Shown here: piece by piece, positions 1 through 43,817 of the stretch | How the letters are laid out: each line of letters starts with the position of its first letter | Numbering within the stretch: position 1 is the first letter of the stretch | NCBI GenBank assembly: GCA_013334825.1 | Contig: JAAXWR010000002.1 | Location: forward strand, 155,009 to 219,008 | DNA length: 64,000 bases | DNA from: Candidatus Yonathbacteria bacterium | Lineage (GTDB): Bacteria > Patescibacteriota > Minisyncoccia > Phycocordibacterales > JACNGX01 | Direction: 5' to 3' | Translations under genes and position numbers: made by a program | Notes under the pieces: generated by a model | The model's database searches: none | Seen by the model: the letters and a program-made list of their open reading frames with translations, nothing else | What the model was told of the DNA's origin: nothing

Positions 1-13
1 CAAGCACGAAACA

Positions 14-109
14 TGCTGCGGCGTTCGAATCCCTCACGCGAGCCAAGCAGTTGGCTCGCTCCTCTCCGCATAAGAAAATCACTGCCCCAAAAAGGGCGGG
101 ATTTTCAAA
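14..109 (+). repeat. Ser-tRNA-3'-like structured element, copy 1 of 3. It reads CGTTCGAATCCCT, then a hairpin, then CTCTCCGC and AAYAAAAATC, then a second hairpin followed by GGATTTT.
   Basis: Direct visual alignment with copies at 3791-3886 and 35625-35714. The TTCGAATCCCT and CTCTCCGC blocks match the T-arm and acceptor of the tRNA-Ser(GGA) 3' end at 4974-4995. Confidence 0.6.
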
Positions 110-489
110 TGCGGTGTGTATTGGACGAAGTTCGAATGTATTTTGGACAAAATCCGCAGGATTTTGACGAATGACACTTGCACCTCGCACGCTCCCTTCG
201 GTCGCGATTCCAAAACTAAAAATTTTCCTTCCTTTATTTAAGATTTTCGGCGGGGGGTGTGTGGGGCCGATAAAAAGTGAAAGGAAATTTTTGGTTTTGC
301 TGCGCCGTTTCAGTCTCCGAAAAAAGCAATCTTATTTTAACATTTTTATTTGCTCTTTTCTCCATCTTCGCAGTGAGACGAGACACATTCAATTCGGTTG
401 CATTGGATCAAATCTTATTTTGCTTGCCATGCCTAGTGTGTGCATAATCCCGCTTCGCGAGATTACTCACTTAAAAATCTTATATCAAA

Positions 490-523
490 GAAAAAAGCGC
501 CGTACCCGAAGGTCGTGCGCTTG
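490..523 (-). terminator. Rho-independent terminator for the 565-1449 gene.
   Basis: On the minus strand the hairpin AAGCGCACGACC..GGTACGGCGCTT is followed by TTTTTTC. It sits about 40 nt past the stop codon. Confidence 0.55.
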
Positions 524-564
524 TATTGCCGAGACACGGAAATTGTCGATTAGACCAGAGCGAG

Positions 565-1449
565 TCAGAACCCTTCGAGGGTGGCCTGCGCGACACGCCG
601 ACCGAGATCTTCGTTTTTGAAGCGCTTTGCTCTTATCGAGGGTCTACCTGGGAAGAAACCGCCGCTCACCGAGAAGCCGTGAGCGACGCCGCTCCGAATC
701 GCGTCGAGAACTTCGTCCTGGGTCCAACTGTACAAACCGTTGACAGGATTCCGAATTTCCTCGGTGTGGCCGAGTAATTCGAAGAACTGCGCTTCTTCTT
801 TGATGTTGCCGAACGTGATCGGCTCGTTGTGGAAGAACTTCCAGACCGGGCCACGCTCGATGAGAACCATGTCGTCCTCGCTCGCCGACGTGTACCACCC
901 TGCGCCGAGCTCGCTCGAGATATTGTACGCGGGGTACTTGGTCCCGACCTGCGTTTGCTCAGTGAGATAGCGGTAGTCGATCCTGACGATTTGAAAAACA
1001 AAAACGTCGAGGTCGCGATTGGGTAGCATCTCGCCGTACATGTCCGTGACAGTGGAACGGTCACATGTGCGAACGAAGTCGCCCTCCCAAAACGGCGTCT
1101 CGGGAAGATTCCGAAGGAACTCCTTGCTACGCCAGTTGTCCGGCTGCTCCTGCTGGAGCTTGCGGAAGGCGGAGAGGCGACGCTCGTACTCGTCCTTGTT
1201 GGTGAGCTCGAGGCGGCCACTCGACTCGAAATACTCCTTGCCGTTCGGAAGCTGGACATTTACCCACGCACGGTTGATGTACACCCCCGGCTTGAAGCCG
1301 AAGTTGTCGAGTCGCCCGTAGTGAATCTCGGAGAAGCCGAGGATTGTGGCCTTTGTCCCGTCGGGACAAGGGTTGTAGCCACACTCCCGATTCTCCTGCG
1401 GAATTGTGATGATAACTTCGTCGCCGATTCTCGTTAATTCGTCGATCAT
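565..1449 (-). CDS. Hypothetical protein of 294 aa, encoded in a GC-rich segment.
   Basis: Long ORF with no recognised motif. Its GC content is visibly higher than the flanking DNA. Its upstream region is a 146-bp direct repeat that also lies upstream of the unrelated 2575-3450 gene. Confidence 0.6.
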   Translation of the reverse strand: MIDELTRIGDEVIITIPQENRECGYNPCPDGTKATILGFSEIHYGRLDNFGFKPGVYINRAWVNVQLPNGKEYFESSGRLELTNKDEYERRLSAFRKLQQEQPDNWRSKEFLRNLPETPFWEGDFVRTCDRSTVTDMYGEMLPNRDLDVFVFQIVRIDYRYLTEQTQVGTKYPAYNISSELGAGWYTSASEDDMVLIERGPVWKFFHNEPITFGNIKEEAQFFELLGHTEEIRNPVNGLYSWTQDEVLDAIRSGVAHGFSVSGGFFPGRPSIRAKRFKNEDLGRRVAQATLEGF

Positions 1450-1540
1450 GTTTGTCTCCTTTCATTTTTTTAGTTTGAAATGTGCGGTTGGCGCATCACA
1501 ATAGCCACCAAAATTCTGCGTTTAACCTAGCATATCTGAA

Positions 1541-1686
1541 CCATTCTGTCAAGAGCAAAACGGTTCTATTGAAGCTTTGATTTGAACTTATTTTGATATT
1601 GGTAGTTACGTAGCTTTTTTCGGATAAAACATACAGCAGTGCATGTTTTATTCTCTTACCCCTCTGCGTTCGAATCCCTTCCTCTC
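1541..1686 (+). repeat. 146-bp direct repeat, copy 1. The second copy is at 3538-3683 and differs at only about 2 positions.
   Basis: Near-identical strings read directly from the sequence. Both copies end in CCCTCTGCGTTCGAATCCCTTCCTCTC, which matches the tRNA-Ser(GGA) T-arm and acceptor. Each copy lies immediately upstream of a different minus-strand gene start. Confidence 0.9.
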
Positions 1687-1835
1687 TCGCAACATATAAA
1701 TCGCCGGGCGAATTCTCGCCCGGCTCATTATGTTGCGGTGAGGCTCGGTCTAGAACCCAGCCATCCCAAGCAGTGTAAGGCTTCTTTGGCGAGTTTGCGA
1801 CTCGACGATTTTTTTGGGAAGACGGCCGCGATTAG

Positions 1836-2150
1836 TTAGAGCAATTGCCACAAAAGAGCAATTCCCAAGATTATCCCCGGCATAATATAATCTGCAGTAA
1901 ATCTCACTTTGTGACGGTCAAACTGAAATCCAAGTTTTTCAAGCACGTGCGCATAAAATGTCATTTCACGCCTCTGGGATTTAAATTGCCACTTCGTAAG
2001 AATGCAATCACCCACAAGCAATAATTGGAGATAGTAAAGAATTATACCGATCAGAATAAGCTCCCAAGGAAGCCAAAACGGTGAACTCCAAACAGCAATA
2101 ATCAGTAGAAGATGTGTCCAGAAGAGTATGCCGAAATCTTTATCATACAT
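1836..2150 (-). CDS. Small hydrophobic membrane protein of 104 aa.
   Basis: The ORF has two or three predicted hydrophobic helices. No motif was recognised. Confidence 0.4.
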   Translation of the reverse strand: MYDKDFGILFWTHLLLIIAVWSSPFWLPWELILIGIILYYLQLLLVGDCILTKWQFKSQRREMTFYAHVLEKLGFQFDRHKVRFTADYIMPGIILGIALLWQLL

Positions 2151-2512
2151 ATGTTTATTGTAACATACTCAATATTCTTAGAGCATCGGTTGCGTAACAT
2201 CGTCTCACGTTCCTGCGGAGAGGGAGGGGACACTCACTGCTCGGACTTCGCTCGCGGGTAGCTCGCTCGTCCTGTACTCGCGAAACCCACGGTTTCGCGG
2301 GCATCCCTGCCTACCGGCAGGCAGGCTTCACGGGTAACCAGCGTCTCCTCACAGGAGCAGTACACCTTTTGGATGAATCGTTCGGACAAGTCCTCCAATT
2401 CATCTCAAAAGGTCTTGCGAAAGCTCCAAGTGTTCGCTTTCTCACCCCGACCCCCTCCGCGTTCGAATCCCTTCCTCTCCTTATTCACTTCGTTCACTGA
2501 TTGTGGTAACTC

Positions 2513-2554
2513 AATAAAAAAAGAGGGTGGAAAGTTTGGTAACTTCCCACCCTC
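2513..2554 (-). terminator. Rho-independent terminator of the lipoprotein gene.
   Basis: Minus-strand hairpin GAGGGTGG..CCACCCTC followed by TTTTTTTATT, immediately downstream of the stop at 2575. Confidence 0.65.
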
Positions 2555-2574
2555 AGTTGAGAGAGTTTGCGCTC

Positions 2575-3450
2575 TCACTTTGGAATGACGAACTGCTGGC
2601 CGTCGGCGGTTTTCACAAGTTGATAACCATTGTCTACCTTCGACCACTTCTTGGTCACCTTACCGCGAAGTTCCGACAAGCGACCTTTTACGATGAGCGA
2701 GCCAGTACTCAATTGCGCGTTCCAAGCATCGCTGGTCTTCTCATACACCTCGCGTGGAACTTCGAGCGTGATGTCGTGGGTGTTCGCCGCGTTGCGGATG
2801 TGCTTCGTGAGGTCGAGCGTGAACGTGGAGTTCTCGACCCGAATATTCACGAAGTATCGGTTGAGCGACTGGCGATCCACGAACTGGTATTCCGCAAGCG
2901 GCTTTTCCAGAACGTAGGTTCGCGCAACACCAGCAAACGGAACGGTAAGCAGTTGGCGACCGCTGGAACGCAACTGTTGCATCGCTTCGTCGTACTGCTC
3001 CTTGTTGATTTCGGTCTGCGTTCCATTTCTGTCCGCCCAGAAGTACTGGCTTTCGATCTTCTTCTCTGTGGGACGCACGACGTACTCGGCGATCTCGTCA
3101 TTGAAGACAAAACCCCAACCGTCGCCCTTACTCGAGACCTCCTGTCCGATCTCATACTCGTTGAAGGTTTTTTCATCGACGATAAGGGTGCGCGACTCGG
3201 CGGCCATCGCGTTCTTCGCATGAGCCCAAAGGTCGAGAGTGAATTGCTCCTTCTCGAATTTGAGAGTTACGAGGAACAACTTCTCTTCTCGAAGCTCGGT
3301 TGCATTCGCGAGAACCGCGACCACATCCGGTTTCGGATTTTCTGCCGGAGCCGCAGCAACTTGCCGCGACTGTTGATTCGGTTGCTGATCGCACCCCGCA
3401 AAGAACGCGAGGGCAACAATCAAGGTAAATAGGCTGGCTGACTTTCTCAA
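2575..3450 (-). CDS. Lipoprotein of about 291 aa with an internal duplication of roughly 140 aa.
   Basis: A TTG start at 3450 sits 6 nt downstream of AAGGAGA. The signal peptide is LRKSASLFTLIVALAFFAGC and ends in a lipobox. The FTLDL..H..NA motif occurs twice. Confidence 0.6.
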   Translation of the reverse strand: MRKSASLFTLIVALAFFAGCDQQPNQQSRQVAAAPAENPKPDVVAVLANATELREEKLFLVTLKFEKEQFTLDLWAHAKNAMAAESRTLIVDEKTFNEYEIGQEVSSKGDGWGFVFNDEIAEYVVRPTEKKIESQYFWADRNGTQTEINKEQYDEAMQQLRSSGRQLLTVPFAGVARTYVLEKPLAEYQFVDRQSLNRYFVNIRVENSTFTLDLTKHIRNAANTHDITLEVPREVYEKTSDAWNAQLSTGSLIVKGRLSELRGKVTKKWSKVDNGYQLVKTADGQQFVIPK

Positions 3451-3537
3451 TAGTTTCTCCTTATCTTTCGTTGTGAATGTGCGGTTTTTTGAGGCAAAAT
3501 AGCTCAATGAATCATGTGATATCTTAATATATGAAAA

Positions 3538-3683
3538 CCTTTCTGTCAAGAGCAAAACGGTTCTATTGAAGCTTTGATTTGAACTTATTTTGATATTGGT
3601 AGTTACGTAGCTTTTTTCGGATAAAACATACAGCAGTACATGTTTTATTCTCTTACCCCTCTGCGTTCGAATCCCTTCCTCTC
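3538..3683 (+). repeat. 146-bp direct repeat, copy 2. It pairs with 1541-1686.
   Basis: Direct alignment. It is followed at 3662-3725 by an inverted repeat CGAATCCCTTCCTCTCC..GGAGAGGAAGGGATTCG with a 17-bp stem. Confidence 0.9.
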
Positions 3684-3790
3684 CTTATTCACTTCGTTCA
3701 TTGCGGAGAGGAAGGGATTCGCTCCTTACAGGAGCAGTGCAGGTTTCCCATTTTTTCGGAGCATAGCTCCTCAAAAATATGGGAGAACCT

Positions 3791-3886
3791 TTTCGAATCC
3801 CTTCCCGCAGGCAAAGCAGCTTGCCTGCTCTCTCCGCTCAACAAAAATCGCACCCCTCAAAGGGTGCGGATTTTTGTACGAGCGGG
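3791..3886 (+). repeat. Ser-tRNA-3'-like structured element, copy 2 of 3.
   Basis: TTCGAATCCCTTCC, then hairpin GCAGGCAAAGCAGCTTGCCTGC, then CTCTCCGC and AACAAAAATC, then hairpin GCACCCCTCAAAGGGTGC, then GGATTTTTG. The blocks are collinear with 35625-35714. Confidence 0.7.
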
Positions 3887-4078
3887 AACGATATCCGCAA
3901 CTTTGAACCGGCAAATCGTTTAAGCTTTATCAGACTTGATAAGATTATACGAAATTTGCGACTAATATACAAAGAAAATCCTGCTTATTTTGATATTCCA
4001 CAATTCGCACAAAAGGTTTACTGAATTTACCGCTATAATCCGCTACAACCAGCTATATATAGCGTATCAGATAAAATT

Positions 4079-4873
4079 CTACTTTTTATCATAGACAGAT
4101 TCGAATTGAATATTTTGATCACTTATTCTAATAACTTCGCCACTTTTTATTGGAATCGAGTACTCTTGTGTCTGTGGATTAAAATTTTTCCCAGATAACG
4201 CTATTTTTGAGATAATCTTGCCAACCACCTTAGGATCACGGAGTTGATGCTCCATAATTTTTAATTCTGTCCGATGTTTTATATCGCCTACGCCGAAGAC
4301 CAGGACTTCTTGGTGCATCCTTGTATTAACAGACCCTGGACTTATCATAATGATTGTTACGTCTTGATTTTCTGGTTTACCGCTAAAATCTTTTAACCAT
4401 TGTTCCATACGTAATTTACCTTCTCTGTATGTTTCAATTCCACCACCAAGATCAGTATGGGCAGTATCTGAAGTTATGAAAACTATTCTGCCATGATTTT
4501 CCCTTAATGATTCAATTGCTGTCCGCGACAAAGCAATATTTGCAACCTCGTTTACCTTAAAGGCATATTCCTTGTCTTCCTTTAGACCAGTTACCCCTGC
4601 ATTTAATATTAGAACATCTATCCCACCCAATTCTGAAATACTCTCATCAATAAATTCTTGAGCATTATGTCTATCAGCCAAATCGACTTGTTTGGCATGT
4701 ATATCTGGATGAAGTTTTTTTATTTCTTTAATCTTACTTTCGGTACGAGCACAGATAGCGATTTCATGACCCTCGTCAAGTAAATCGTCAGCAATAGCTC
4801 TCCCAATGCCTTCTGTTCCACCAGTTAAGACAACCTTTTTTGTTTCAAACATATTTTGATTTAGTTTTTCCAT
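4079..4873 (-). CDS. Short-chain dehydrogenase/reductase (SDR) family oxidoreductase.
   Basis: N-terminal TGGTEGIGRAIA Rossmann motif, SDR-like overall layout and an ISPGSVNT region. The start was moved to the ATG at 4873 (MEKLNQ..). Confidence 0.8.
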   Translation of the reverse strand: MEKLNQNMFETKKVVLTGGTEGIGRAIADDLLDEGHEIAICARTESKIKEIKKLHPDIHAKQVDLADRHNAQEFIDESISELGGIDVLILNAGVTGLKEDKEYAFKVNEVANIALSRTAIESLRENHGRIVFITSDTAHTDLGGGIETYREGKLRMEQWLKDFSGKPENQDVTIIMISPGSVNTRMHQEVLVFGVGDIKHRTELKIMEHQLRDPKVVGKIISKIALSGKNFNPQTQEYSIPIKSGEVIRISDQNIQFESVYDKK

Positions 4874-4973
4874 TATAGTTCGAATCCCTTTAGAGTTCAG
4901 GCATTTTATCAAATTTCTGTTTTGAAAAGTAGCTTAAAACAAGGATATTTTAATGCACACTTTCCAAAACTTC

Positions 4974-5063
4974 TGGCGGAGAGGAAGGGATTCGAACCCT
5001 TGGTACCGTTACCGATACACCACCTTTCCAGGGTGGCCCATTCGACCGCTCTGGCACCTCTCC
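4974..5063 (-). tRNA. tRNA-Ser (anticodon GGA) with a long variable arm. CCA is encoded.
   Basis: Manual fold: acceptor GGAGAGG/CCTCTCC, anticodon loop CUGGAAA, T-loop TTCGAAT, discriminator G. Confidence 0.85.
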
Positions 5064-8100: not shown

Positions 8101-8220
8101 AAGTTTATCGTTTATAGCTTTCGTCTCCATATTTCATATTTCTATTTTCTTATTTCATCGTCTATCGTTTATAGTTTTCGTCTTCATATTTCATACTTCT
8201 TAATTCGCCTTTCGTATTCT
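8101..8220 (+). repeat. Tandem repeat of about 60 bp, two copies (TATCGTTTATAGYTTTCGTCTYCATATTTCATAYTTCT..), inside a CT-rich motif block.
   Basis: Read directly. Related CGTTTATAGTTTTCGTCTTCATATTTC strings occur at 39680-39706, and in reverse complement near 48300-48345. Confidence 0.7.
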
Positions 8221-8326
8221 TGCTTCATGCTTCGTGATTCGTGCTTCGAGTATCCGTCCCTATAACCCATCTCCTCTAACTCCTTTCCTACACGAATGCG
8301 TATTTTCTGTTATACTTTCTTGTATT

Positions 8327-21079: not shown

Positions 21080-21150
21080 GCGGAATTAGTTAAGTGGCAT
21101 AACATTAGCTTCCCAAGCTGAGATCGCGGGTCCGATTCCCGCATTCCGCA
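21080..21150 (+). tRNA. tRNA-Gly (anticodon CCC).
   Basis: Manual fold: acceptor GCGGAAT/ATTCCGC, D-stem GTTA/TAAC, anticodon loop UUCCCAA, T-arm GCGGG-TCCGATT-CCCGC. CCA is not encoded. Confidence 0.8.
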
Positions 21151-21478
21151 CAAAGGACGCCCTTCAGGGGCGTCCTTTGTGCGGAATGAGCGAGCAAACT
21201 GCTTTGCTCGCGTTGGGAATCGGACGGCTCGGCGATGTTGTCGCTTGCGACGACCGCGAGCCGCGTCCAGGAGTACTTAGCGGATTGCGAATAAGTGAAG
21301 CAATACGCTTAGTAACTCCGGGACGATTCCCGCATTCCGCACCCAGCCCTACTTTCATAACAAACGCATGTACACTACATGCGTTTGTTATGTGATTATT
21401 AGAAATATATATTATTGAGTGTTTAATGAAAGTAGAGCTGGGTGCGGAATGAGCGAGCAAACTGCTTGATATACATTA
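21151..21478 (+). repeat. Composite element downstream of tRNA-Gly. It contains a terminator hairpin, an inverted copy of the tRNA 3' end split by a CTGC-loop hairpin, an H2 module, a direct copy of the 3' end, a roughly 105-bp CCCAGCC hairpin and a second truncated inverted copy.
   Basis: 21180-21227 reads TGCGGAATG[AGCGAGCAAACTGCTTTGCTCGC]GTTGGGAATCGGACGG. 21319-21341 reads CGGGACGATTCCCGCATTCCGCA. 21342-21447 reads CCCAGCCCTACTTTCAT..ATGAAAGTAGAGCTGGG. The 24-bp string TGCGGAATGAGCGAGCAAACTGCT occurs at both 21180 and 21447. Confidence 0.8.
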
Positions 21479-24334: not shown

Positions 24335-24406
24335 CCCTTCGTAGCTCAATGGATAGAGCAACTCCGTCCTAAGGAGAAGATGTAGGTTCGACTCCCGCCG
24401 AAGGGA
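24335..24406 (+). tRNA. tRNA-Arg (anticodon CCT).
   Basis: Manual fold: acceptor CCCTTCG/CGAAGGG, D-stem GCTC/GAGC, anticodon loop GUCCUAA, T-loop TTCGACT. There is one mismatch in the anticodon stem and one in the T-stem. Confidence 0.6.
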
Positions 24407-24670
24407 CATATTGAAAAACACCCTTTAGGGTGTTTTTCAATATGTCCCTTCGGAGTAAGCCGACTGCTCGGCTTACGTCGGGAGTCGAACTGAGCACCAC
24501 TTTTGCTGTTGCAAAAGTGGTGCTCGACGTCCAGCGGTACTTATGGAAATGCGAGTGCCCGAAGCATTTCCATTAGTAACCGCGGGACGATTCCTGCCGA
24601 GGGGTTTTTGATTGTGAGCGTATCCCGCGAACCTTTCCGAGCAGTGAGTGTTCCTGCCGAGGGGACAGGC
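24407..24670 (+). repeat. Composite element downstream of tRNA-Arg. It contains a 21-bp-stem hairpin, an inverted 3' copy split by a CTGC-loop hairpin, and H1, H2 and degenerate direct 3' copies.
   Basis: GGGACATATTGAAAAACACCC..GGGTGTTTTTCAATATGTCCC, then TTCGG[AGTAAGCCGACTGCTCGGCTTACGT]CGGGAGTCGAAC. H1 is GAGCACCACTTTTGC..GCAAAAGTGGTGCTC. H2 is GTCCAGCGGTACTTAT..TTAGTAACC followed by GCGGGACGATTCCTGCCGAGGGG. Confidence 0.8.
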
Positions 24671-25264: not shown

Positions 25265-25400
25265 CCCAGCCCTACATTCATAATAAACGCATGTACACCA
25301 CGTGCGTTTATTTTGTGATTGTTGCATTTTTACATATTGCCACCTTTCATGAATGTAGGGCTGGGTGCCGAGGGAGGAAGGCAACTGCTTGCCCACAGTT
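25265..25400 (+). repeat. Composite element downstream of tRNA-Phe. It is a roughly 100-bp CCCAGCC hairpin module followed by an inverted acceptor copy and a CTGC-loop hairpin.
   Basis: CCCAGCCCTACATTCATAATAAACGCATGTACACCACGTGCGTTTATT..CATGAATGTAGGGCTGGG, then GTGCCGAGGGAGGAAGGCAACTGCTTGCCC. Confidence 0.8.
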
Positions 25401-25492: not shown

Positions 25493-25747
25493 ATGACTAC
25501 GCTTAATATAAGAATTGAAGAAAAAATTAAAGTGAAGGCAAATAAAACATTATCTTCACTTGGGCTTGATATGTCTACGGCAGTTAAGATATTTTTGAAT
25601 CAAGTTATTATAGAAGACGGTTTACCGTTTACCCCTACGAATAATAAACTTATGCTAAAAGAACGTTGGGATAAACAAACTGCTCATGCATTGAAGTATG
25701 GAAAAAATTACAAAAATGGTAAAGATGTATTGTCTGACATAGTGTAA
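25493..25747 (+). CDS. dinJ: Type II antitoxin, DinJ/RelB family.
   Basis: MTTLNIRIEEKIKVKANKTLSSLGLDMSTAVKIFLNQVIIEDGLPF matches the DinJ RHH N-terminus. Confidence 0.8.
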   Translation: MTTLNIRIEEKIKVKANKTLSSLGLDMSTAVKIFLNQVIIEDGLPFTPTNNKLMLKERWDKQTAHALKYGKNYKNGKDVLSDIV

Positions 25748-25758
25748 TATTTTTTTGT

Positions 25759-26040
25759 ATGTATACGATACGTCGTTCAAAAGACTTTGAATTATCTATT
25801 AAACGTCTAAAACATGCAGGGTTAAAGCCGTCAGTAAAACATGATATTGAGTGTGTTATCGATTTGCTTGCTTTAGGGGAAAAGTTACCCGCGAAATATA
25901 GAGATCACAAATTACAAGGAGAACTTTCAGCGTATAGAGAGTGTCATATAAAAGGAGATTTGCTTTTGATTTATATGATAAGAAAAGAGTACATGATATT
26001 GATTCTTGTTGATATCGGTTCTCACGCGCAATTATTTTAA
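25759..26040 (+). CDS. yafQ: Type II toxin, YafQ (RelE/ParE superfamily).
   Basis: DHKLQGELSAYRECHIKGDLLLIY..GSHAQLF matches the YafQ consensus, and it lies immediately downstream of dinJ. Confidence 0.8.
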   Translation: MYTIRRSKDFELSIKRLKHAGLKPSVKHDIECVIDLLALGEKLPAKYRDHKLQGELSAYRECHIKGDLLLIYMIRKEYMILILVDIGSHAQLF

Positions 26041-26149
26041 ATACGAAAATAGTCTCTCTCTATTGAGAGATATTTAGTAAAGTTTCCATACACACACTGG
26101 AGGGCGTAAGCCCTCCAGTGTGTGTATAATTACTTCGTGCTTCCCGTCT

Positions 26150-26240
26150 TGTTTCGTATGTTCCCTAGCACTGTGCATTGTGCACCACGTAGGATGCACA
26201 GCACGCCACGTGGGGTGCAGGGCAATCGTACTATTCGTAC
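26150..26240. repeat. Palindromic element of about 90 bp rich in CACGTGG, copy A (MITE-like).
   Basis: CCCTAGCACTGTGCATTGTGCACCACGTAGGATGCACAGCACGCCACGTGGGGTGCAGGG flanked by GTTTCGTATG / GTACTATTCGTAC. This is the reverse complement of the copies at 39583-39666 and 41563-41652. Confidence 0.75.
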
Positions 26241-26309
26241 TTCGTAACCCTTAATTCTTGCTTCGTGATTCCAGTATCCGTCCCTATCACCCATCACCTC
26301 TCTCCTAAT

Positions 26310-26798
26310 TTAATTCCCCTTTACCTTTACACGAGAGTGTTTATCACGGTCTATTTTAGGCATGCGGATTGTGAGTAGTCCGTTGCGTTCAGTTGCTTCA
26401 GCAGCATCAGGGTCAATTTCTACCGAGAGGGGAATGACACGTGAGAATGAACCCCAATACAGTTCCCGATACATAAAGCCATCATTTTCGATAATACCCG
26501 AATCGTCTTCGCGGGTACCTTTGATGGTTACCTCGTTACGACTGATGGAAACTTCAAGGTCACTCGGATCAACACCCGCAATCATTGATTTGATAACCAA
26601 ATCATCACCTTGTTCATACATATCAACAGTGAGTTCTCCTTCCTCGTCTTCTTCTTCCCACATATCGGCAGCTGTTTCTTCGCGCTCTGTGGGCGATTCG
26701 TCTTCATCAGCGAATATGGTGTCGCGTTCATCTTCATCACGTGGCGTTACCGCGCCTGCGATGCGTCCGAACAGAGATGTGCGTTTTCGTTTCATCAT
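26310..26798 (-). CDS. Hsp20/alpha-crystallin family small heat-shock protein.
   Basis: Alpha-crystallin domain motifs (RELYWGSFSRVIPLSVEIDPD, GLLTIRMPK). Acidic N-terminal region. Confidence 0.85.
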   Translation of the reverse strand: MMKRKRTSLFGRIAGAVTPRDEDERDTIFADEDESPTEREETAADMWEEEDEEGELTVDMYEQGDDLVIKSMIAGVDPSDLEVSISRNEVTIKGTREDDSGIIENDGFMYRELYWGSFSRVIPLSVEIDPDAAEATERNGLLTIRMPKIDRDKHSRVKVKGN

Positions 26799-35488: not shown

Positions 35489-35624
35489 ATAAAACTATGA
35501 TACCATGTCGATTGATTTTTAGGGAGGGATTTGTCCTGGAGTTACTAATTGAAATGTTCTATGTATTCTCATTTTAATAAGTACTCCTGGACGCGGCTCG
35601 CATTTCTCGCGAGCGAGAAATATG

Positions 35625-35714
35625 CTCCGCCGTTCGAATCCCTCCTCGCAGGCAAAGCAGTTTGCCTGCTCTCTCCGCCCAACAAAAATCGCACCCTAAA
35701 GGTGCGGATTTTTG
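35625..35714 (+). repeat. Ser-tRNA-3'-like structured element, copy 3 of 3.
   Basis: CGTTCGAATCCCTCC, then hairpin TCGCAGGCAAAGCAGTTTGCCTGC, then TCTCTCCGCC and CAACAAAAATC, then GCACCCTAAAGGTGC and GGATTTTTG. It is preceded by the palindrome GCATTTCTCGCGAGCGAGAAATATGC. Confidence 0.7.
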
Positions 35715-37927: not shown

Positions 37928-38186
37928 AATATCTTAACTACACTCTTTCGCTATGATACATGAAAGGGTGCCTTTCCGCGACATCCCCGTTCTTTGCTGC
38001 GCAAAGAGCGGGGTGCGCGGACCCGCCCAGCTCTTTCAAAAGGGCTGGACGGGCGACCACAGAGCCACCTCTCCATTTCTTCTGCGTCTTTCTGTATTCG
38101 TTCCGCGAAGTTCTGCGTAATTCGTATATCCTAGCACCTTTTGCCATTTTTTCAAAACATGATACAATGCATCGGTCAAATAAATA

Positions 38187-38421: not shown

Positions 38422-38819
38422 CAAAACGCCAGCGCCGAAGTATATCTTCGGCGCTGTTGCGTTTTGTAGACCCTACGGGGAATCGAACGGCGCAAGGCGG
38501 TATACAAGATGCGCAAGATTGCGCATGCTTGTCGCTGCGCCGCGTCCAGCGGTACTTATCAGAATGCGAGCATTGGCGAAGCATTATGATTAGTAACCGC
38601 GGGACGATTCCCCGTAGTGCCTTTCGTGAGAATCGAACCGAGCACCACTTTTGCAATGGCAAAAGTGGTGCTCGATGTCCAACAGTATCCAGCCCCACTT
38701 TCATAATAAACACATGTGCTGTGATAGATTTTTTATCCGAGTTATGAGTATTGTTTATGAATGAAGCCTCTCATGAAAGTGGAGCTGGATAACCGTGGGG
38801 ACGATTCCCCGTAGAGTCA
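38422..38819 (+). repeat. Composite element downstream of tRNA-Glu. It contains a long hairpin, a contiguous inverted copy of the tRNA 3' end, a GGCGCAAGGCGGTATACAAG box, H2, a direct 3' copy, H1, a roughly 100-bp CCAGCC hairpin and a second direct 3' copy.
   Basis: 38467-38490 TAGACCCTACGGGGAATCGAACGG is the reverse complement of the tRNA's 3' end. 38599-38621 reads GCGGGACGATTCCCCGTAGTGCC. 38797-38819 reads GGGGACGATTCCCCGTAGAGTCA. The modules align with those of the Gly, Arg and Val loci. Confidence 0.8.
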
Positions 38820-41562: not shown

Positions 41563-41652
41563 CGAAGTACGAACTTATACGCTTGCCCTGCACACCACGT
41601 GGCATGCTGTGCATCCTACGTGGTGCACAGTGCTAGGGAACATACGAACACT
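41563..41652. repeat. Palindromic CACGTGG-rich element, copy C.
   Basis: GCCCTGCACACCACGTGGCATGCTGTGCATCCTACGTGGTGCACAGTGCTAGGG flanked by GTACGAAC / CATACGAACA. Confidence 0.75.
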
Positions 41653-41853
41653 ACTGAATACAAATAATCATGTTGGTGAGTTTGTGTTCGTATGTTCGTA
41701 CTCGTTCATACTTCGTAACCCCTCATTCCTGTCCGTCTCTATAAACCTATCACCTCTAACCTCTTTCCTATTTTCGTCCACTCTTATCACCTCTAACCTA
41801 TTTCCTGCCCCCTGCTTCTTGCTTCGTGATTCTCATGTTATGATATTCTCCAT

Positions 41854-43407: not shown

Positions 43408-43500
43408 TGTTCGAGCCCCGTGTCACCACGCAAATACAAACAATCGCAAGGGCATGCCTTGCGATTGTGTATTTGTGGGCGACACAGGACTCGTCCCGCG
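43408..43500 (+). repeat. Direct repeat of about 93 bp, copy 1. It duplicates the downstream hairpin, the inverted T-arm copy and the last 18 nt of tRNA-Val. Copy 2 is at 43676-43768.
   Basis: The two copies are identical over roughly 90 nt (CGTTCGAGCCCCGTGTCACCACGCAAATACAAACAATCGCAAGGGCATGCCTTGCGATTGTGTATTTGTGGGCGACACAGGACTCG). They bracket a CCAGC hairpin module at 43503-43606. Confidence 0.9.
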
Positions 43501-43743
43501 GTTATCCAGCTCCACTTTCATAATAAACACATACGCCATGATAGATTTTTTATCCGAGACGTAGGTATTGTTTATAGATGAAGTCTCTCATGAAAGTGGG
43601 GCTGGATACCGTTGGACGCGGCGCGGCGACAAGCACTCGCGAGTAAACTCGCTCGTCTTGTATACCGCCTTGCGCCGTTCGAGCCCCGTGTCACCACGCA
43701 AATACAAACAATCGCAAGGGCATGCCTTGCGATTGTGTATTTG

Positions 43744-43817
43744 TGGGCGACACAGGACTCGAACCTGTGACCTTCACAATGTCAATGTGACGCTCTAACC
43801 AGCTGAGCTAGCCGCCC
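43744..43817 (-). tRNA. tRNA-Val (anticodon GAC).
   Basis: Manual fold: acceptor GGGCGGC/GTCGCCC, D-arm GCTCAGCTGGTTAGAGC, anticodon stem-loop TCACA-UUGACAU-TGTGA, T-arm ACAGG-TTCGAGT-CCTGT. Confidence 0.9.

Follow-up and report, generated by a model that had tools for sequence, protein, structure and literature searches.

When integrases use tRNA and tmRNA genes as targets, the sites reportedly have a set of textbook features, a view ascribed to Williams (2002): crossover in the T loop, a regenerated tRNA gene, flanking direct repeats of the tRNA 3' part and accretion in tandem, with tmRNA genes targeted as well. Integron attC sites and the attP(+) site of the CTX phage, which is used by XerCD, are of a different kind: we take them to consist of two inverted target-like copies, about 100 nt apart, which form a forked hairpin. 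Only one strand is presumably functional, and it is marked by unpaired or extra-helical features. In the IS91 family, subterminal palindromes are found at both ends, the target being GTTC for IS801 and IS1294 and GTCC for IS1294b (bioRxiv 10.1101/2025.01.24.634351). The units described here share some features with each of these systems, and also with the tRNA-like domains of several RNAs.

The window, which is the whole 64 kb stretch of DNA that we have analysed, is a piece of a Patescibacteria (CPR) chromosome encoding MurJ, LepA, aminoacyl-tRNA synthetases, FtsZ and MreB, with seven tRNA genes (ARAGORN, Rfam). Units or their remnants accompany five of these seven genes, often as arrays (Table 1). 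On the tRNA strand, a unit is made up of the tRNA 3' part (nt 57-73), a perfect hairpin, a left arm, the core segments P2 and P3, and a right arm. The left arm is the complement of nt 73-53 and ends in GAAC; it may include a hairpin with a CTGC loop, which we call hpX. P3 has the form CGTCCAGSRGTACTTA ... TTAGTAACYSCGGGAC, ending in GGGAC, and the right arm, which comes after the unit, repeats the tRNA 3' part. We think that these units are probably non-autonomous, structured, non-coding elements of about 200 nt, which insert site-specifically in the T loops of Patescibacteria tRNA and tmRNA genes (nt 56/57), and that hpX is a module of their 5' arm. Toxin-antitoxin cargo adjoins two of the arrays. 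The tRNA-Val array has a single core, with a perfect direct repeat of 85 nt on both sides which consists of the tRNA 3' part, the hairpin and the left arm.

Table 1. Position of the units, their parts and their remnants in the window. Bit scores refer to covariance model R1, built from 39 copies.
Feature	Position (strand)	Remarks
tRNA-Arg(CCT) gene	24335..24406 (+)	last 17 nt, 24390-24406 (nt 57-73), supplied by the insert; ARAGORN, Rfam
Arg unit, perfect 16-bp hairpin, loop TTTA	24408..24443 (+)	between tRNA end and inverted copy; tip of a palindrome of about 38 bp
Arg unit, left arm, acceptor part GTCCCTTCGG	24444..24453 (+)	exact complement of nt 65-73 plus one flanking base; 8/8 match
Arg unit, hpX	24454-24478 (+)	A-GTAAGCCGA-CTGC-TCGGCTTAC-GT; loop CTGC 24464-24467
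Arg unit, left arm, T part CGGGAGTCGAAC	24479..24490 (+)	complement of nt 53-64; ends in GAAC, the complement of T-loop GTTC
Arg unit, conserved core	24491..24588 (+)	P2 24491-24527; P3 24528-24588, CGTCCAGCGGTACTTA...TTAGTAACCGCGGGAC; R1 81.7 bits
Arg unit, right arm GATTCCTGCCGAGGGG, then TTTTT	24589..24604 (+)	same as the functional tRNA-Arg 3' part of L050, L052 and L055
Older unit remnant, second core family (...CCGAGCAGTGAGTG)	24614..24666 (+)	own copy of the tRNA-Arg 3' part, 24651-24666; 100% match to L052 5188-5241
tRNA-Gly unit	21134..21341 (+)	R1 93.9 bits
Gly unit, 3' part	21134-21150 (+)	
Gly unit, hairpin	21151-21179 (+)	
Gly unit, left arm	21180-21188 (+)	
Gly unit, hpX	21189-21213 (+)	loop 21199-21202
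Gly unit, T part	21214-21225 (+)	
Gly unit, core	21226-21324 (+)	
Gly unit, right arm	21325-21341 (+)	repeats the 3' part exactly
Truncated second left arm and hpX start, near the Gly unit	21443..21456 (+)	after a palindromic element of about 100 nt
tRNA-Phe solo left arm (TGCCGAGGG) and degenerate hpX	25366..25394 (+)	no core
Phe hpX, degenerate	25375-25394 (+)	5-bp inner stem
tRNA-Glu array, two units without hpX	38467..38819 (+)	R1 101.9 and 30.7 bits
Glu unit 1, left arm	38467-38488 (+)	
Glu unit 1, core with long P2	38489-38605 (+)	
Glu unit 1, right arm	38606-38621 (+)	
Glu unit 2	38622-38819 (+)	palindromic insert at P3 tip
tRNA-Val array	43409..43761 (-)	single core 43494-43676; R1 51.1 bits
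Orphan unit, tRNA-Ser-type arms	35525..35682 (-)	hpX 35646-35670 (-); R1 101.7 bits
Unit with third, short core type	3703..3842 (-)	hpX 3805-3829 (-); downstream of tRNA-Ser(GGA)
Unit cut at window edge	1..75 (-)	left arm TGCGGAGAGG, hpX 36-60 (-), T part, core start

The hpX hairpin is a discrete insert of 25 nt: an A, a 9-bp stem, a 4-nt loop, the 9-bp return stem and GT. A sequence-only reading of this DNA had reported it in the inverted copies of the Gly, Arg and Phe tRNA 3' ends, and the three sequences are found in the window as it described them. It had also placed the insertion exactly at the junction between T stem and acceptor stem. The position is fixed, being the same in every copy that we have checked, but it is one base off the proposed junction: hpX follows the first T-stem-complement base, with the complements of nt 65 and nt 64 of the tRNA on either side of it. 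Three Ser-like copies were supposed to carry the hairpin on the opposite strand. Only two such copies have it (35646-35670 and 3805-3829); it is missing at 1659-1706, 2452-2499 and 3656-3703. The copy at the window edge had been overlooked. Two further examples have to be discarded. There is no hairpin at 2239-2252, where the sequence is complementary to the 3' end of a different family of elements, and the hairpin at 37990-38015 has a 3-nt TGC loop and lies inside a tRNA-Ser-like fragment, a different context. The hairpin is an optional module of the unit: units which lack it have a long P2 (GGCGGTATACAAGA...GCTTGTCGCC) in its stead. The same hpX variants are found in differing, unrelated tRNA contexts.

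The CTGC hairpin is a real, selected structure. In an alignment of 18 distinct hpX variants, taken from the window and from other genomes, 99.4% of the cells are paired. All nine stem pairs have changed on both sides, a result which none of 500 shuffles reaches and which slid registers do not approach, so that the compensatory changes claimed for the stem are confirmed by covariation. The conserved loop is confirmed as well. It is CTGC in 17 of about 29 hpX-type hairpins, a figure which includes manual curation (the script alone finds 14). A census of the perfect tetraloop hairpins whose stems have 7 bp or more in the Patescibacteria loci gives CTGC or GCAG in 27 of 186 cases; 0.5% would be expected from composition, which amounts to an over-representation of about 29-fold. 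CUGC does not belong to the stable GNRA and UNCG tetraloop classes, therefore its conservation requires some other reason. A pseudoknot between the CUGC loop and a GCAG sequence in P3 has been considered and rejected: according to our reading of the alignment, CTGC is kept in copies with GCGG or GGAG in P3, and the loop does not covary with the P3 GCAG. Covariation, loop and position thus agree with the selected structure that had been proposed, a description which was incomplete since the hairpin is only part of an element of about 200 nt. As to the "copied tRNA 3' end" of the same reading, the inverted copy does exist, but it is not a passive one: it pairs with a replacement tRNA 3' end supplied by the element.

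The core is a conserved three-way junction which includes P2 and P3. It is conserved nearly base for base across Patescibacteria classes, and 10 of its 21 pairs show compensatory changes, a number matched by none of 500 shuffles. P2 and the P3 tip have tandem G.A motifs, and a U.U mismatch within CUUAG/CUUAG is universal in the core alignment. At least three unrelated core types are found with one common arm arrangement. We have also considered hammerhead, twister and other ribozyme cores, which were rejected because their consensus motifs are absent by eye and there is no Rfam match.

The two strands of the units are not equivalent. In 36 of 38 copies the more stable fold is that of the tRNA-sense strand (mean -49.3 kcal/mol, against -43.0 for its complement), and after this strand test we rejected a tRNA-like gene on the minus strand. 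For the Arg unit the values are -97 kcal/mol (sense) and -87 kcal/mol, with z = -11.9; when the unit is folded with DNA parameters, z = -20.8. In addition, there are two P3 pairs which vary on one side only, and their alternative is G-U (10 and 6 cases), with one G-A and no A-C. Selection therefore sees the sense strand in single-stranded form, either as RNA or as single-stranded DNA.

Two folds are predicted for this strand. In one of them the left arm is paired with the 3' part that belongs to the element, giving a hairpin of about 38 bp that reaches GTTC/GAAC; in the other the left and right arms close the three-way junction. Both predictions give an acceptor-plus-T-stem helix built by the arms, from which the CTGC hairpin exits at the place of the D and anticodon arms in a real tRNA. 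In the predicted Arg fold, a 7-bp acceptor-like helix is stacked on one resembling a T stem, and the 3' discriminator is single-stranded; the right arm is absent or decayed in about half of the copies. The T loop itself (TTCRANY) is not part of the sense strand, which carries its complement AATCGAAC; the 3' side is a shortened ACGATT.

In a species-level genome collection we have found the P3 core motif in 36 loci, all of them from Patescibacteria or unclassified MAGs; Saccharibacteria, Paceibacterota, Campbellbacteria, Woesebacteria and other Patescibacteria are represented. Model R1 matches more than 50 copies, variant cores included. In viral contigs the full motif has no matches, and the 13 matches of a 17-nt sub-motif are due to chance, since the covariance model upholds none of them. 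Of 41 motif copies, 27 are located within about 200 nt downstream of a tRNA or tmRNA gene on the same strand, and 35 within about 600 nt. The target genes include more than 17 tRNA isoacceptors or species and one tmRNA (in locus L008). Most tRNAs in these loci which have no main core motif downstream have no inverted copy of their own 3' end either.

The arms follow the neighbouring tRNA. Among the units with hpX, 11 have a left arm whose acceptor part matches that tRNA at all 8 positions compared; in 3 others it does so at 7 of the 8. The right arm coincides with nt 57-73 at 13 to 17 of the 17 positions in 14 of 35 units and has decayed in the rest; it is often decayed or missing altogether, as in the tmRNA of L008. 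Of the 14 units whose right arm is preserved, 11 show the tRNA sequence starting again with nt 57 just 3' of ...GGGA(C/T/A). The left junction is always the T-loop GTTC, or GTCC in tRNA-Gly.

A comparison with related genomes allows us to see what has happened at the tRNA-Arg gene. Three contigs with the body of tRNA-Arg(CCT), obtained from a metagenome scan (L050, L052 and L055), are syntenic with positions 20.5-29.9 kb of the window, with about 88-92% identity. In all three the tRNA-Arg gene has GATTCCTGCCGAGGGGA as its 3' end and is not directly followed by such a unit. In the window this sequence is found about 180 nt downstream of tRNA-Arg, as the right arm at 24589-24604, and the gene ends instead in GACTCCCGCCGAAGGGA, which pairs perfectly with the left arm. 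The 3' end of the relatives' gene is thus the right arm of the window, therefore the unit has been placed between T-loop nt 56 and 57, displacing the old end. The segment placed there comprises a replacement 3' part, then the perfect hairpin, a left arm that includes the CTGC hairpin, and the core; the bases CGA are shared by both insertion junctions. The window tRNA-Arg has an A51.C63 mismatch in its T stem, which is absent from the three relatives, and its tRNA score is the lowest of the seven genes (55 bits, Rfam).

A full copy of another core family immediately follows tRNA-Arg in L052, with a unit of the first core type farther out; the window retains the last 53 nt of the former. The sequence that is a solo arm at tRNA-Phe in the window occurs twice in L052, on both sides of a complete unit. 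The tRNA-Gly units of the window and L052 have a common arm and an identical CTGC hairpin, with differing hairpins and cores. The tRNA-Glu gene is empty in another genome (L013) and has two units in the window; around this gene the two sequences are too diverged for an exact alignment to define the empty site. These comparisons show a fast turnover of units.

Another pair is formed by L013, with tRNA-Val arms, and L026, with tRNA-Ser-type arms. Their cores are 99% identical over 105 nt and their arms are unrelated; identity stops sharply at GAAC on one side and after GGGAC on the other. Identity is thus limited to the core, and the moving unit may therefore be smaller than the inserted one. 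Also, the tRNA-Arg hairpin resembles that of L052, so that part of the module could be resident, and recombination could have taken place instead of a clean insertion. Among relatives which are only about 90% identical, we have seen neither an excised form nor an empty-site pair of near identity.

We have looked for an enzyme that might move these units. Pfam scans covered the 40 ORFs of the window and the ORFs adjoining 10 other copies, and 350 ORFs were clustered all against all. No integrase or recombinase, transposase, HUH protein or reverse transcriptase was detected in the window or close to 10 to 20 or more other copies, and the clustering gave no protein family recurrent near the elements. 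In particular, no HUH-Y2 transposase was found among the sequences covered, namely the 64 kb of the window and about 300 kb from related loci. An ORF of 87 amino acids in the tRNA-Glu array of L034 has GIY-YIG-like motifs, according to our reading of its sequence; it has not been seen elsewhere. A search for sister strains through exact matches to the protein of a neighbouring gene gave none on record. The family has no counterpart in the databases and literature searched: Rfam 15 finds only the seven tRNAs of the window at the gathering threshold and only spurious miRNA-hairpin matches at a relaxed E-value, full-text literature searches gave no description of such units, and they go unmentioned in a paper that deals with the group I introns of tRNA genes in Patescibacteria. 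Nor do they behave as MITEs, in which the terminal inverted repeats should be constant and a short duplication of the target site is expected: the arms vary with each tRNA, and nearly identical cores have unrelated arms.

We can suggest how such an element might work. It would bring a replacement for nt 57-73, which would keep the tRNA gene whole, and the original 3' end would be pushed downstream as a direct repeat. The active form may be the tRNA-sense single strand, most simply a read-through RNA from the tRNA promoter, otherwise single-stranded DNA. In the Arg unit, the hairpin that follows the tRNA scores below a strong intrinsic terminator; a weak terminator hairpin at this place, together with T runs or terminators after the right arm, makes read-through from the tRNA promoter plausible. 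In the single-stranded form the two arms would build a tRNA-like acceptor/T-stem minihelix. An enzyme acting in trans, perhaps a recombinase or a tRNA-processing enzyme, may use the CTGC hairpin for recognition or as an architectural support, because this hairpin has a fixed place, a conserved loop of no stable tetraloop class, and identical variants in unrelated contexts. As the left arm exactly complements whichever tRNA adjoins it and the branch is kept, the arms could remain complementary to the adjoining tRNA end through hairpin-templated correction, the unpaired branch being carried along. A bolder proposal goes further: the units would be a gene-less class of mobile elements that parasitise tRNA genes, with a core of about 100 nt and a CTGC-branched minihelix mimic, moved only by host enzymes (tRNA-processing, repair or Xer-type) or by a ribozyme activity of the core, and retargeted when hairpin-templated copying rewrites the arms from the adjoining tRNA end. 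We offer it tentatively, as a possibility that is on the doubtful side.

Other explanations start from the same facts. The units might be a cellular non-coding RNA gene, whose tRNA-like product is co-transcribed with the tRNA and excised by RNase P and RNase Z; the closing helix would mimic the acceptor/T minihelix of the neighbour, the CTGC hairpin would replace the anticodon or D arm, and arrays and losses would be the result of ordinary duplication and deletion. Such a gene would account for the strong conservation of sequence and structure across Patescibacteria classes, the tandem G.A motifs, the universal U.U mismatch and the sense-strand bias. There is no space for a promoter of its own, which fits co-transcription, as do the presence of weak terminator features only between tRNA and unit and of a T run or terminator after the right arm; besides, three G.U pairs can connect the left arm of the Arg unit to its old right arm. 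Nevertheless, we find this explanation rather unlikely, because the distribution of the units is sporadic, and because insertion has displaced a functional tRNA-Arg 3' end and left a T-stem mismatch behind. Right arms which are often decayed or absent, 99%-identical cores at different tRNAs in different species, and at least three unrelated core types with the same arm arrangement also speak against it. Quite improbable, in our opinion, is a family of non-autonomous derivatives of HUH elements, of the IS91 or IS200/IS605 kind, in which cleavage takes place after the T-loop GTTC and the CTGC hairpin is the putative transposase site, an idea raised in the sequence-only reading. The units do lie directly 3' of GTTC (GTCC in tRNA-Gly) and have similar ends, GGAC or GGAT; their strand asymmetry is compatible with a single-stranded DNA intermediate, the Arg unit folded with DNA parameters has the low z-score given above, and the targets and subterminal palindromes are those of the IS91 family (bioRxiv 10.1101/2025.01.24.634351). 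On the other hand, our searches of the window and its related loci gave no HUH or other transposase, the units are confined to T loops and not found at GTTC sites in general, and the mechanism does not explain why each of them has a target-specific tRNA 3' part. Tandem G.A motifs are also commoner in RNA.

The units could also be double-stranded att sites left behind by tyrosine-integrase elements, either prophages or islands, which have lost their genes, as in CIMEs; the hairpins would then be incidental terminators. All the features listed at the outset, from the T-loop crossover and the regenerated tRNA gene to the flanking 3'-part repeats, the tandem accretion and the targeted tmRNA, agree with such an origin. 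It is nonetheless very improbable: compensatory stem changes and a G-U strand bias are not expected of double-stranded arm sites, no integrase is found by any copy examined, viral contigs give no matches, and the conserved unit is merely about 100-200 nt in all lineages. Finally, foldback synthesis could yield perfect palindromes centred on the hairpin that follows the tRNA, so that one must mention the idea that the units have no selected structure and are either chance palindromes or what replication leaves when it switches template at terminators. This idea is hardly credible in view of the 29-fold CTGC enrichment, the covariation, the fixed position of the 25-nt insert and a core conserved across classes; chance palindromes are in fact refuted by the covariation of hpX and core and by the loop enrichment.

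Site-specific elements of tRNA T loops, which we consider the best explanation, would be of interest for several reasons. Patescibacteria have tiny genomes, yet units are found at five of seven tRNA genes in 64 kb. If they move with no gene of their own, they would be a compact model of selfish DNA or RNA that lands on the T arm of a tRNA, the best conserved of all cellular structures, and keeps the host gene alive, and the conserved core would be a recombination substrate or an RNA. They alter tRNA 3' ends, as in the T-stem mismatch of tRNA-Arg, and they mark sites of gene gain, the toxin-antitoxin cargo being an example. In metagenome bins they are probably mis-assembled or overlooked.

As regards known systems, the presumed architecture of integron attC and CTX attP(+), with its inverted target-like copies, forked hairpin and single functional strand, resembles that of our units. 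Unlike them, the units target the T loop of tRNAs and not attI or dif, and they are not joined to a cassette or a phage genome. Rolling-circle elements of the IS91 family and the palindrome-associated derivatives of IS200/IS605 are also similar, with insertion 3' of GTTC or GTCC and no classical target duplication, subterminal hairpins at both ends and strand specificity; in fact, an IS91 target tetranucleotide (GTTC/CTTG/GTCC) abuts one end of the units. They differ from these elements in that no HUH transposase has been found, in their restriction to T loops, and in the target-specific replacement of the 3' end. The tRNA-like domains of tmRNA, of the bacterial Y-like RNA YrlA and of viral tRNA-like structures share with the predicted fold of the units a closing helix formed by the acceptor on the T stem, and a side hairpin at the exit of the other arms. 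In the units, unlike these domains, the sense strand is the complement of a T loop, the acceptor sequence follows the adjacent tRNA, and no Rfam family is matched.

The closest parallel is with the elements which use a tyrosine integrase and target tRNA or tmRNA genes, and with CIMEs. Both they and the units are inserted in the 3' part of the gene, supply an identical or nearly identical 3' end, leave the old end as a direct repeat and accrete in tandem. Integration regenerates an intact gene, as seen when the window tRNA-Arg is compared with L050, L052 and L055, and also in the tmRNA of L008. Unlike the integrative elements, the units have about 200 nt and no integrase nearby (40 ORFs in the window, and the ORFs by 10 other copies), their conserved part is a covarying single-strand fold with an inverted copy of its own att segment, and several unrelated cores are found under the same arms. 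We regard this family, with no match in Rfam or in the literature searched, as a variant of the integrative elements that target tRNA genes, and it is a real possibility that it moves by an undescribed route.

Two further kinds of core are found between tRNA-derived arms, and their positions are collected in the table below. The second core family (GCGGAGGGGGTCGGGG ... CCGAGCAGTGAGTG) lies between arms of the same kind as those of the main units. It is about 125 nt long in L052, one of the syntenic relatives, as against about 230 nt in the window. Its right junction falls after A58, two bases deeper into the T loop. The third core type is short (~85 nt) and has GCTCCTGTAAGGAGC as its terminal hairpin; it too is combined with arms of this kind and with a CTGC hairpin. 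A filler, TTTTTGATTG, is present 3' of the right arm at window positions 24605-24614, and the identical filler occurs in L017, a locus from another genome, at about 995-1005, 3' of GGGACGA.

Positions of features in the window and in loci from other genomes
Feature	Locus	Position	Strand	Remarks
Second core family	window	2210-2480	(-)	
Second core family	window	24614-24650	(+)	remnant
Second core family	L052	5101-5226		
Third core type	window	3703-3842	(-)	
Third core type	L026	about 2360-2400		
Palindromic MITE-like element	window	21342-21442, 25265-25365, about 38675-38790, about 43497-43607		
Palindromic MITE-like element	L052	5328-5432, 5452-5552		
tRNA-Ser-like fragment	window	37960-38075	(-)	just upstream of tRNA-Ser(CGA)
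SDR ORF	window	4079-4912		cargo downstream of tRNA-Ser(GGA)
326-aa ORF	window	2575-3555		cargo downstream of tRNA-Ser(GGA)
164-nt repeat	window	1523-1686, 3520-3683		
87-aa ORF	L034	456-719	(-)	between tRNA-Glu and exact tRNA 3' part repeat
Dispersed intergenic repeats	window	8200-8290, 26125-26314, 41733-41837, 58603-58685, 62604-62702		GTCCCTATAACCYATCACCTCTAACC..TTTCCT and TATTCTTGCTTCGTGATTC
56-nt inverted repeat pair	window	26175-26230 with 41578-41633		93%

A palindromic MITE-like element of ~100 nt (CCCAGCCCTACWTTCAT ... ATGAAWGTAGRGCTGGG) is found immediately 3' of tRNA-Phe and 3' of the Gly right arm, and it is also hosted by the P2 or P3 tips of several units. Its inner hairpin and T run obtain a score as a predicted terminator.

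Downstream of tRNA-Ser(GGA), in window 1-5063, the 3' end of tRNA-Ser recurs in inverted orientation at least five times, and cargo ORFs, some of them unknown, are interspersed among these copies. The 326-aa ORF has no Pfam match, and its N-terminus reads like a lipoprotein signal. The 164-nt repeat carries a strong promoter-like site. The hairpin at 37990-38015, which the sequence-only reading had listed among its CTGC-loop hairpins, lies inside the tRNA-Ser-like fragment. This fragment begins like a tRNA-Ser, with the acceptor 5' strand and the D arm, but it lacks a T arm, and one loop, of 12 nt, is aberrant.

Other repeats are also present. Within an 838-aa ORF (60010-62526), an 84-nt repeat occurs seven times in tandem (60088-60867), which makes the encoded protein repetitive. 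In Pfam this ORF matches only DUF1717, and weakly. The dispersed intergenic repeats and the 56-nt inverted pair are unrelated to the tRNA units.

Several ORFs are found beside the tRNA arrays. A RelB/YafQ toxin-antitoxin pair, identified by Pfam, follows tRNA-Phe (25493-26040). In L052, two ORFs after the Gly array (1204-2112) are a possible toxin-antitoxin pair; one of them, judging from its sequence, reads like an AbiEii-type nucleotidyltransferase. In L034, a locus from another genome, the right junction beside the 87-aa ORF, CTCCTGGCC|GATTCC, is similar to unit ends, and the ORF itself appears to have GIY-YIG-like sequence motifs.
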